From the NCBI GenBank assembly GCA_964270895.1, contig OZ185445.1: a DNA stretch of 64,000 bases. One strand, written 5' to 3'. Below the pieces are notes generated by a model. That model ran no database searches and was not told where the DNA came from. It saw only the letters and a program-made list of their open reading frames with translations. The stretch comes from Podarcis filfolensis. Lineage: Eukaryota. A program made the position numbers and the translations under genes. Positions 8,609 through 64,000 of the stretch are shown in pieces. Position 1 is the stretch's first letter. Every line of letters starts with the position of its first letter.

Positions 8609-9063
8609 GTGCAATCCTGTGTATGTCCCCTTGGAATTAAAGCCTATCAATTTCGGTGGGACTTACTCCCCACTAATTATGGTGCTGGAGGAGACTCTTG
8701 AGACTCCCATGGACTGCAAGAAGATCAAACGTATCCATTCTTAAGGAAATCAGCCCGGAGTGCTCACTGGAAGGACAGATCGTGAAGCTGAGGCTCCAAT
8801 ACTTTGGCCACCTCATGAGAAGAGAAGACTCCCTGCAAAAGACCCTGATGTTGGGAAAGATTGAGGGCACAAGAAGAAGGGGACGACAGAGGACGAGATG
8901 GTTGGACAGTGTTCTCGAAGCTACAAACATGAGTCTGACCAAACTGCGGGAGGCAGTGGAAGACAGGAGTGCCTGGTGTGCTCTGGTCCATAGGGTCACA
9001 AAGAGTCGGACACGACTAAATGAATAAACAACAACAACAACAAGTATGTACAGGATTGCATCC
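8609..9063. mobile_element. Short palindromic MITE-like repeat (gcaatcct...aggattgc) split by Bov-B
   Basis: Left half 8609-8672 and right half 9044-9063 have inverted ends gcaatcctg / caggattgc. Confidence 0.6.
8675..9043 (+). mobile_element. Bov-B (RTE LINE) 3' fragment
   Basis: ORF reads PWTARRSNVSILKEISPECSLEGQIVKLRLQYFGHLMRREDSLQKTLMLGKIEGTRRRGRQRTRWLD; (AAC)n tail. Confidence 0.95.
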
Positions 9064-9243: not shown

Positions 9244-9412
9244 CAGTGCTTTTTTTCTGGGGGTATGCATACCCTTAAACATTTTGTGAATCTTTGTATT
9301 TTTGTCCATTTACTGTATTTATTTTCCCCAATTTGAACAATAAAATGGTGATTTTCTTGAGTCAAAATGAGAATACACCTAAACGTGTTTTTTTAAGGGA
9401 AAAAAAGCACTG
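9244..9412. mobile_element. hAT-type MITE
   Basis: TIR cagtgcttttttt / aaaaaaagcactg; 8-bp TSD attactgg / attacagg. Confidence 0.85.
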
Positions 9413-9683
9413 ATTACAGGCACAGACTGAAATAAGCACATACATGGGAATTCTGGAGCAAATGGTTTCACTTTGTGTGGTAAGATATTGGGTAAAAGGT
9501 AAAGGTAAAGGACCCCTGGACGGTTAAGTCCAGTTAAATTTGACTATAGGGTGTGGTGCTCATCTCTGCTTTCAGGCCTAGAGAGCTGGCGTTTTTTTGC
9601 AGACAGCCATTCCGGGTCATGTGGCCATCATGGCTAAACCACTTCTGGCATATGGAGCACCATGACGAGTGCCGGAGCGCATG

Positions 9684-10496
9684 TGTCAGGGACTCAGGAG
9701 CAGGAGCTCTGGGGAGAGAGGAAATGGAGAGCGAAGGGGAAGAATCCGAGAGCAGCGTAGGGGAGTATGACAGTGGCCCGAGAGATTCCATGAGCTTCTC
9801 CAGCGAATCAGAAGATTCCCAGAAGGGGGCGCCTATGGTCAGGGCAAGGGGGGTCCCAGGGGGGACGCACCAGAAACAAGGAGACAGAGGGGAACCCCAA
9901 AGCAGCAGTGGGGGATTGGGACCAGTTTCCCCACCAGAGCGTAGTGGGGGGGAAGAGTCACATGTGTCAGAGCCAGCGTCTCCTCCAGCGGGGAGAGAGA
10001 GTGAGTCAGGGCTGACCACGCCTCCAACGGAGGGGAGGTCAGTTGCAGCTAGCCCCCCCAGAGGGGGAAGCAGTGACAGCAGCAGCAGTGAAACGGTCAG
10101 GAGGAAAGTTACCGGCTGGGCGCGCGTGCCAAGTTCAAAGGTACAGGCGCGGGGAACAGCAGGAGACCCGGATGCGGAACCAGCTCCTAAAGCCCGCCGG
10201 AGGGAGGGGGAAGGCTCAGGGGACTCAGCGTCAGAAGAGGCTAGAAAGGATGAGACCCCAACGGCCAGGCGCAACCAGAGGCGGAAGGAACTGAGGAAGA
10301 GGTGGAGTAAGGCTAGAATCTTAAATTGGTGTCAGGGGGGAGGAGACTCAGACGGAGCATCAGCGGTCTAACAGTTGAGACGTAGAGCTGCGCGCTGCGG
10401 CTCTGGAAGTGAAACTGAACTTCAATAAAGACTTTTGTACTTAACAAAGAAGCAGCGTTGGTCCTTTGTGAGCTGGGACCTTGGGCAGCCCTGACA
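9684..10496 (+). mobile_element. Solo LTR, 813 bp (Gypsy or ERV class not determined)
   Basis: TG..CA ends with 8-bp inverted termini tgtcaggg / ccctgaca; 5-bp TSD gcatg at 9679-9683 and 10497-10501; AATAAA at 10424-10429. Confidence 0.92.
9724..10371 (+). CDS. Putative LTR-encoded 215-aa acidic, Ser/Pro-rich disordered protein with basic C-terminus (function unknown)
   Basis: Frame open from the second base of the LTR to TAA 10369-10371 (228 codons); first ATG in gaaATGG context. No homology recognised and expression is unproven. Confidence 0.4.
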   Translation: MESEGEESESSVGEYDSGPRDSMSFSSESEDSQKGAPMVRARGVPGGTHQKQGDRGEPQSSSGGLGPVSPPERSGGEESHVSEPASPPAGRESESGLTTPPTEGRSVAASPPRGGSSDSSSSETVRRKVTGWARVPSSKVQARGTAGDPDAEPAPKARRREGEGSGDSASEEARKDETPTARRNQRRKELRKRWSKARILNWCQGGGDSDGASAV

Positions 10497-11030
10497 GCAT
10501 GGAAATGTCATTTACCTTCCTGCCACAGCAGCGGTACTTATTTATCTACTCGCACTGGTATGCTTTTGAACCGCTAGGTTGGCAGGAGCTGGGACAAAGC
10601 AATGGGAGCTCACCCTGTTTTGCGGATTCGAACCTCTGACCTTACAATCAGCAAGCCCCAGAGGGCTCAGTGGTTTAGACCACAGCACCGCCCACTGTGT
10701 TGGGTAGCAACTCAGGTCACCATGACCATAGTTGCTGTGGGTTTTTGCAAAGAGTTCTGAAAGTACAGAAAACTGCCTTATGCTCTCAGACCATTGGGTT
10801 CATTTTCAGTATTGTCTACACAGATTAGTGGTGGTTCTCCCAGTCCTATTCCAGCACTAAGCTGCATGCAAAAGCTTTGTGTTCCATTGATCTGTGTTGC
10901 ATGGCTACATGTTTCAGAACTATCTCTATGTATTTCTCTTTTACATACACAGAGCAAAAATGACATAATGTATGCATTAGGCTTCCTGTATTTGGGGGAG
11001 TGGAATATTCTAGCCCTAACTGTATGAGAG

Positions 11031-11558
11031 AAAAGCAATGACAAACCTAGACAGCATCTTAAAAAGTAGAGACATCACCTTGCCAACAAAGGTCTGTATA
11101 GTTAAAGCCATGGTTTTCCCAGTAGTGATGTATGGAAGTGAAAGCTGGACCATAAAGAAAGCTGATGGCCAAAGAATTGATGCTTTTGAATTCTGGTGCT
11201 GGAGGAGACTCTTGAGAGTCCCATGGACTGTAAGAAGATCAAACCTATCCATTCTTAAGGAAATCAGCCCGGAGTGCTCACTGGAAGGACAGATCATGAA
11301 GCTGAGGCTCCAATACTTTGGCCACCTCATGAGAAGAGAAGACTCCCTGGAAAAGACCCTGATGCAGGGAAAGATGGAGGGCACAAGAAGAAGGGGACGA
11401 CAGAGGACGAGATGGTTGGACAGTGTTTTCGAAGCTACAAACATGAGTTTGACCAAACTGCGGGAGGCAGTGGAAGACAGGAGTGCCTGGTGTGCTCTGG
11501 TCCATGGGGTCACGAAGAGTCAGACATGACTAAAAGACTAAACAACAACAACAACAAC
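11031..11558 (+). mobile_element. Bov-B (RTE LINE) 3' fragment
   Basis: Open 163-aa frame TNLDSILKSRDITLPTKVCIVKAMVFPVVMYGSESWTIKKA..; (AAC)n tail; 13-bp TSD aactgtatgagag. Confidence 0.97.
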
Positions 11559-62954: not shown

Positions 62955-63144
62955 ACTGGATGCTGCCTTATGCTGAACCAGACCATTAATCTATCTAGTT
63001 TAGTATTGTCTACACTGCTCGGCCGCAACTCTCAGGGTTTAATAGAAGAGTCTTTCTCAACCCTACCTGGAGAGGCCAGCAACTGAAGCTGGAACATGGC
63101 GTTTGCAAAGCAGATGCTCTACTACTGAGTTACGTCCCTTCCCC
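62955..63144 (-). mobile_element. Squam2-like tRNA SINE
   Basis: gctgccttatgctgaaccagaccatt..gtattgtctacactg..caaagcagatgctctactactgagttacgtcccttccc. Confidence 0.7.
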
Positions 63145-63177
63145 TATAGCTGGCCTGCCCCCTTTCCCAATGGGGGT

Positions 63178-63646
63178 TGTTGTTGTTGTTGTTGTTTAGT
63201 CGTGACCGACTCTTCGTGACCCCATGGACCAGAGCACGCCAGGCACTTCTGTCTTCCACTGCCTCCCGCAGTTTGGTCAGACTCATGTTTGTAGCTTCGA
63301 GAACACTATCCAACCATCTCGTCCTCTGTCGTCCCCTTCTCCTTGTGCCCTCCATCTTTCCCAGCATCAGGGTCTTTTCCAGGGAGTCTTCTCTTCTCAT
63401 GAGGTGGCCAAAGTATTGGAGCCTCAGCTTCACGATCTGTCCTTCCAGTGAGCACTCAGGGCTGATTTCCTTAAGAATGGAGAGGTTGGATCTTCTTGCA
63501 GTCCATGGGACTCTCAAGAGTCTCCTCCAGCACCATAATTCAAAAGCATCAGTTTTTCGGCGATCAGCCTTCTTTATGGTCCAGCTCTCACTTCCATACA
63601 TCACTACTGGGAAAACCATGGCTTTAACTATACGGACCTTTGTTGG
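63178..63646 (-). mobile_element. Bov-B (RTE LINE) 3' fragment
   Basis: Open frame PTKVRIVKAMVFPVVMYGSESWTIKKADRRK..; (AAC)n tail; 10-bp TSD caatgggggt. Confidence 0.97.
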
Positions 63647-64000
63647 CAATGGGGGTAGGCTCACAATACTATCTCACATTATTATTGTCTGCCACAAACT
63701 GTCTAAGGAAGGGCTAAGGAACAAAATGTCAGAGTGAAGGCAGCATTTTTCTTTTCCTAGCACAGACGCTGATATTGACACTTTGATATTATAGCAATAA
63801 CATTATTGACTCATGTTTTTTTCGGATTGTATAGTGGAAGTTTTAAAAAATGCAGATCTTATGGACAAGATGACCTGTGTGTGTGTGTGTGTGTGTGCAC
63901 GCATACACACAAACTCTCATGGCTCTCTGCCAGTTGTGAATTGGCCTATAGTAGTTTAAAAAATTATACATGTTCACTGTTTGGGCCATTCAACACCGAT

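Follow-up and report, generated by a model that had tools for sequence, protein, structure and literature searches.

A Lizard Solo LTR Carries the C-Terminal End of Pol from a Self-Priming, Probable Chromovirus, Read through Nearly the Whole Inferred U3

Introduction

Protein coding within the U3 region of long terminal repeats (LTRs) is known from MMTV sag and lentiviral nef, which are separate ORFs expressed from their own mRNAs. Vertebrate Tf1/sushi elements are relatives of the mammalian RTL/SIRH genes. A layout in which the Pol frame itself extends into the 3' LTR has been described for plant CRM elements of group A, where this extension carries the CR motif (Neumann 2011, PMC3059260; Weber 2013, PMC3605345); such elements are centromeric, primed by tRNA-Met and endowed with the CR motif instead of a chromodomain. 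In Tf1/sushi elements the RNA begins with the self-primer, and those outside yeast are described as mostly frameshifting (bioRxiv 2022.12.06.519325). The LTRs of fish Sushi elements have been described as T-rich in U3 (PMC3601003). Our literature search for coding U3 regions, or for Pol frames reading into the LTR, in vertebrates, which did not extend to Repbase, Dfam or older subscription-only articles, brought up nothing beyond the work on plant CRM.

Here we analyze a solo LTR in a stretch of 64,000 nucleotides from the lizard Podarcis filfolensis (contig OZ185445.1, assembly GCA_964270895.1), hereafter called the window. A reading of this sequence alone had proposed that the LTR encodes an accessory protein. 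The results of our analysis indicate that its open frame is the end of Pol of a young chromovirus, and that this layout recurs in three other element families of the same genome.

Results

The Solo LTR and Its Open Frame

The element at positions 9684 to 10496 (plus strand, as are all features below unless stated otherwise) is a solo LTR from a Ty3/gypsy family, probably of chromoviruses, hereafter called family A, and represents the 813-bp type. It has TG..CA termini with 8-bp inverted ends (TGTCAGGG..CCCTGACA), lies between two copies of the 5-bp target-site duplication GCATG (9679 to 9683 and 10497 to 10501) and is 98–99% identical to both LTRs of two-LTR copies containing gag and pol. The structure given in the sequence-only reading was found again in full, including the insertion into a short interspersed repeat: the flanks (9495 to 9683 for the 5' part, 10497 to 10700 for the 3' part) rejoin into a single copy of a SINE-like repeat, which we take to be a Sauria SINE and which occurs in several copies within the window. 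An Rfam search of positions 9400 to 10800 returned no match.

As previously noted, no stop interrupts the frame from base 2 onward over 228 codons (9685 to 10368, with TAA to 10371); the AATAAA poly(A) signal (10424 to 10429, also present in family B described below) follows 52 nt past the stop, close to the earlier estimate of about 50 nt. The ATG at 9724, the four [ST]PP motifs and the basic end of the peptide are likewise present in the window copy. The frame is in fact open from 9550, and the additional 45 codons in the SINE flank were rejected as chance flank. Searching the 1.5-Gb genome at the DNA level gave 2429 first-look candidates, of which 40 were scored, all being at least 98% identical to the window LTR, and 30 were fetched. 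Among these 30 nearest copies, a target duplication of their own is present in 24, and a frame of at least 228 open codons has likewise been retained in 24. When the LTR was shuffled with its dinucleotides preserved, 94 of 5000 shuffles gave a frame of this length or more in any of the six frames, so length alone is only moderately significant and provides modest evidence. The decisive evidence for coding is the continuity of the frame with pol combined with selection.

Besides the LTR, the window contains three young 3' fragments of a LINE-like repeat, presumably RTE/BovB (8675 to 9020, 11020 to 11530 and 63122 to 63673), which are 95–96% identical and have open RT-end frames.

Full-Length Copies of Family A

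The search for full-length elements, recommended on the basis of the sequence, was successful. Two LTR matches 5.9 kb apart flank a 6.7-kb element containing gag (CCHC), protease, RT, RNase H, integrase and a Tf2-type SH3 domain, as called by Pfam on the two-LTR copy L031; two-LTR copies also have a primer binding site (PBS). The order gag, PR, RT, RH, IN and a polypurine tract (PPT) ahead of the 3' LTR are those of Ty3/gypsy elements (Metaviridae). Copy L031 is broken by stops in the integrase; the last ORF of the two-LTR copy, of 633 codons, runs through the SH3 domain, a chromo-like stretch, an acidic tail and the PPT into the 3' LTR, stopping at the same codon as the frame of the solo LTR. 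The earlier suspicion that the frame continues an internal ORF is borne out by full copies, which read from integrase across the PPT into the 3' LTR. Positions 9685 to 10371 of the window correspond to the last 228 codons plus the stop of pol, and we are highly confident that they constitute the C-terminal tail of Pol, behind integrase and chromodomain.

A single open frame of at least 1480 codons is present in 72 of the 150 best-scoring copies of family A, with 20 others of the 150 ending at 1340 to 1390 codons, and in 58 of 64 near-identical young copies; young copies are spread over many large contigs. After fetching 40 further stretches, the choice of which was partly guided by long frames, the pol frame was found to end 211–232 codons inside the 3' LTR in 25 of 41 fetched stretches, many of them with identical LTR pairs. 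The LTR types of the family (801, 813, 816 and 825 bp) differ in length by multiples of three. Just 5 of the 30 older copies nearest to the broken copy L031 are open from the chromodomain to the LTR stop, and in 18 of these 30 a single nucleotide has been lost from the G runs directly ahead of the 3' LTR. Since such 1-nt changes are scattered over different runs and LTR types, they may represent a slippage hot spot or assembly error. Tail-less copies may be mobilised by help in trans.

Older copies with internal sequence are concentrated on one contig, C19 (15 of 30 loci), and near chromosome ends, a pile-up that would be expected of low-recombination regions such as the W chromosome. Copy L031 splits an ORF that is probably part of a tyrosine-recombinase element, its first part weakly matching the phage-integrase N-terminal domain (E 3.9e-5, below the cut-off); because three places on C19 (also L002 and L021) have the same flanks, this composite must have been duplicated. 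Around the 5-bp duplications of 65 family A and B insertions, A or T stands at -3 in 64 cases and at +3 in all 65, a symmetric bias that amounts to a strong target preference; four insertions (L006, L013, L023 and L128) share, to the nucleotide, a single site in one host repeat, with both orientations represented.

Self-Priming and the Inferred Transcript Start

The PBS, located 2 nt past the 5' LTR, pairs over 10–11 nt with a site 146–147 nt from the LTR end in all 34 two-LTR copies of family A, and in six of the 34 pairs the PBS and its complement have changed together. This self-priming, characteristic of Tf1/sushi elements, also holds for 16 of 16 copies of family B, with a different sequence, and for 10 of 14 of family C. 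The pairing of PBS and self-primer is contained in the folded leader, the overall energy of which is ordinary (z -1.2). In the window the self-primer occupies positions 10350 to 10360, overlapping the last pol codons, and since the self-primer of Tf1/sushi elements marks the RNA 5' end, we place the U3/R border at 10350, namely 22 nt before the end of the pol stop codon. The transcript would thus start at the self-primer, and within the full-length RNA the 3' LTR copy alone would supply the tail; a solo LTR would transcribe from its own promoter just the last seven codons. It is likely, judging from this arrangement, that solo LTRs do not express the tail peptide. Together with the neutrality of private mutations reported below, the position of the inferred start speaks against the earlier idea that solo LTRs scatter an expressible cassette across the genome.

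The sequence TTAAAT, about 30 nt before the inferred start, resembles a TATA box and was rejected as such because it is not kept in family B, which has TTGAAC at this place, a synonymous change. A block of 24 nt at 10120 to 10143 is identical in DNA between families A and B, synonymous positions included, which suggests that promoter elements lie inside the coding frame; the window copy departs from this candidate element at two places.

Selection on the Tail

Natural copies of family A have dN/dS values of 0.26–0.42 in the LTR part of pol, compared with 0.03–0.40 in the enzyme cores (8 pairs). For a finer comparison of variants we used 77 LTRs of family A with distinct flanks, considering as shared the variants present in at least three copies and as private those of a single copy. 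Shared variants in the pol frame comprise 43 synonymous and 51 replacement changes plus 1 stop (dN/dS 0.48, p 2e-4; 0.38 without CpG-type changes), whereas private variants show a dN/dS of 1.01 (Fisher p 0.006 vs shared); the values in the other two sense frames are 0.91 and 2.07. Indels behave similarly: the three commonest measure 15, 9 and 3 nt (in 9, 26 and 37 copies, respectively), private ones are frameshifting in 17 cases versus 4 in-frame, and the three rare shared frameshifts are located at G or C runs. Between families A and B, the LTR part has dS 1.24–1.46 and dN 0.27–0.28 (dN/dS 0.19–0.22), with 62% amino-acid identity. Given that shared variants and indels are constrained and private ones neutral, the tail peptide is under purifying selection in the replicating lineage and decays neutrally after insertion. 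The proposal that the LTR frame is coding and selected is upheld by the shared variants and by the comparison with family B.

The ATG proposed as the start of a stand-alone accessory protein (9724 to 9726) shows no such conservation. This codon is TGG or TTG in 29 of the 77 LTRs, the 801-bp type included, and the ATG is missing from family B and from the Podarcis muralis model P0001. Hence the frame has no conserved start codon of its own, separate from pol, of the kind found in sag or nef, and the evidence favors the Pol C-terminus over a stand-alone protein.

Related Families and Taxonomic Spread

By protein search, the same tail was found on Pol models of Podarcis muralis (56% identity) and also on more distant models; gene predictors already call such LTR frames hypothetical proteins in Podarcis. 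Genome searches with tail-bearing Pol proteins led to three more families, B, C and D, in which pol coding runs through nearly all of U3. Family B, with RT 88–89% identical to that of family A and a 714-bp LTR, reads 195 codons into the LTR in 16 of 16 copies; its stop lies 125 nt from the LTR end, as in family A, and its PBS is different yet complementary. Family C (RT about 70%, 435-bp LTR) has a clear chromodomain and reads about 109 codons into the LTR in 9 of 14 resolved pairs (20 stretches), with dN/dS of 0.31–0.44 in 6 pairs. In family D (RT about 51%, 568-bp LTR) about 120 LTR codons lie in unbroken frame with the chromodomain in 5 of 8 stretches, and the stop is 25 nt ahead of a 10-nt PBS complement. 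The stretches of families C and D were also picked for long frames or full matches. The tails of families A, B and C end with an Arg-rich run followed by [ILV]L-x-W, retained through synonymous change, and those of family D and of two Anolis proteins end in RRSAR[LI]; the LTR border of the Anolis proteins was placed from PPT-like codons only and is putative.

Among 122 relatives, the chromodomain could be located in 114, of which 88 end no more than 30 residues past it. Tails of at least 112 residues occur in 16 of the 122, 12 of which are named squamate proteins, seven of the 16 having come from tail-based searches. In a quick tree of 35 rows, families A to D form one squamate clade with Anolis, gecko and Rhineura proteins (SH-aLRT 99), to which the long tails belong and which is placed among vertebrate chromodomain Pol proteins beside fungal ones; the named elements Tf1, Sushi-ichi and Amn were outside this tree.

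Among the family B copies L122 to L137, the most numerous young ones join gag to pol in a single frame of about 1868 codons, and what separates them from L130, a frameshifting copy, is a short deletion between two GGAAAC repeats; this single-ORF lineage has amplified. A Podarcis muralis model named 'vomeronasal type-2 receptor 26-like' (P0023) includes integrase sequence of family C, and probably represents a mis-annotation.

Chromodomain and Predicted Properties of the Tail

The chromodomain of family A remains below the Pfam cut-off (E 0.15–0.2), and its weak fold matches are all chromodomains (best E 0.025). The region of family C aligned to it passes Pfam (E 1.7e-10), and we read the chromo-like stretch of family A as a degenerate chromodomain, in which families A and B have Arg where family C has Trp. 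Pfam recognizes no family in the LTR peptide, and the ESM Atlas queried with the tail of a relative returned nothing but chromodomain clusters, under 0.9. The fold model is of low quality (pLDDT 39.9) and comprises a chromo-like unit, an extended region lacking structure and a single helix at the C-terminus. Predicted disorder and an Arg/Lys-rich end agree with the disordered, basic-ended peptide of the sequence-only reading; of its four [ST]PP motifs, only one is kept in family B. The helix (residues 421 to 446 of the low-confidence model, positions 10258 to 10335) is Arg/Lys-rich, ends in the [ILV]L-x-W motif kept in families A, B and C, and is a candidate NLS and nucleosome-binding segment.

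A predicted complex of lizard H2A-H2B with residues 186 to 222 of the window peptide scores 0.46, compared with 0.01 for the best control (partner pLDDT at least 61; runs agreeing in at least 72% of contacts). These controls are not charge-matched, so that any basic peptide might score, and the mark used, which 51 of 78 solved complexes attain as against 2 of 108 mismatches, is not calibrated on peptides. Support for the complex is weak because a score of 0.46 falls in the range, up to 0.60, that holds only 5 of the 78 solved complexes together with all 4 passing mismatches.

Discussion

Of the systems considered, plant CRM is closer to family A than the sag and nef genes earlier named as precedents, since the LTR frame is the C-terminus of Pol: sag, nef and family A all code within U3, but family A does so without a conserved start. 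Families A, B, C and D resemble CRM group A in that the polyprotein frame reads into the 3' LTR. However, family A belongs to a vertebrate, is self-priming rather than primed by tRNA-Met, keeps a chromo-like domain upstream of the PPT instead of replacing it with the CR motif, to which Pfam finds no likeness, and has a frame that takes up almost the entire inferred U3 as far as the transcript start. The lizard element is not a CRM, and its sequence features indicate a Tf1/sushi-type, self-priming element with a CRM-like layout. It shares with Tf1/sushi the CCHC gag, the order PR-RT-RH-IN-SH3-chromodomain, with a chromo-like stretch in the last place, the self-priming PBS with no tRNA PBS and the 5-bp target duplication; it differs from most relatives in extending far beyond the chromodomain, and from fish Sushi in having a T-poor, coding U3.

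What the tail may do is suggested by its predicted properties. We propose that the disordered tail would serve integrase as an arm for nuclear import and nucleosome tethering, staying on integrase after protease processing, with its Arg-rich end contacting H2A-H2B, and that it would have taken over targeting from the chromodomain decayed in families A and B. That chromatin or nuclear tethering is the job of the tail has an even chance of being right; the joint reading of a young lizard chromovirus with Pol running through the whole inferred U3, its tail likely being an import or tether arm, appears probable. The HMGN motif RRSARLSA takes hold of the acidic patch of the nucleosome, according to PMC12487698, which also covers Dsup, and the Pol tails of family D and Anolis, ending RRSAR[LI] in a disordered acidic tail, bear a likeness to it; the RRSAR core is absent from the window peptide, family A having a different Arg-rich end, the binding of which is only weakly predicted, and the tails of families A and D cannot be aligned with each other. 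A broader scenario is more tentative and, in our estimate, somewhat more apt to fail than to hold: a squamate-wide clade of self-priming chromoviruses would have its whole U3 promoter overprinted by an integrase tail of 110–230 residues. The last part of this tail, reaching the transcript start, would tether nucleosomes through an arginine anchor (similar to HMGN in some families and formed by a new basic helix in family A) and would have replaced the chromodomain in targeting, convergent with plant CRM and constituting an unreported acidic-patch tether on a retrotransposon integrase.

Other readings have to be weighed against that of an integrase arm. The tail, though part of Pol, could be cut off by the protease or come from a spliced subgenomic RNA and act as a separate accessory protein, for instance a silencing antagonist or transactivator; this would suit its extension of 385 residues past the chromodomain, the several islands conserved at protein level and the acidic and Ser-rich blocks, which may resemble those of regulatory proteins. 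A Met just before the LTR, kept in families A and B, would provide the start, but it sits in the PPT-LTR junction, where DNA constraint may fix it, and most family C copies have Val at this site; on balance we find this reading, the main rival, rather unlikely. Passive read-through of a T-poor promoter, yielding an inert and merely harmless peptide, draws on the ease with which such composition produces long frames (the shuffles reported above), on the common G-run shifts and on the fish and frog relatives that extend 41–77 residues past the chromodomain without a shared motif. The variant test and the comparison of families A and B have largely refuted it, since dN/dS is 0.19–0.48 at each of three depths, synonymous sites have diverged as much as those of the enzyme core, and the common indels are multiples of three; it now seems improbable.

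Still less credit can be given to a gene starting at the ATG at 9724 and expressed by solo LTRs. The good context of this ATG and the frames open in most of the nearest copies are in its favor, but open frames are expected in copies only about 1–2% diverged, the ATG is variable and lies upstream of the inferred transcript start, and private variants are neutral, with indels mostly frameshifting. The least credible product is that of the antisense frame, 216 codons within the LTR (9684 to 10331, minus strand) and absent from the sequence-only reading, which might be what is selected, as with HIV asp; it is open for 212–250 codons in most LTR types of family A and 195 in B, with equally low dN/dS. 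This low value is a mirror, because the frame has its third positions in common with the pol frame; moreover it has no Met before codon 162, synonymous shuffles match it in 406 of 5000 (A), 1907 of 3000 (B) and 1069 of 3000 (C) cases, and only 87 codons are open within the LTR of family C. We have thus rejected it as a gene and consider it a by-product.

With the LTR frame taken as the end of Pol, a likely promoter region doubles as selected coding sequence along nearly its full length, and thousands of solo LTRs in lizards become a record of protein evolution, in repeats that libraries treat as non-coding; dating by LTR pairs assumes neutrality of U3 only after insertion. The tail also offers a short candidate for how vertebrate Tf1/sushi elements reach chromatin once their chromodomain has decayed. 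The motif EEIDV/EVDV, which resembles a WDR5-binding motif, was dropped from consideration since the DV at the junction is forced by the TG end of the LTR.
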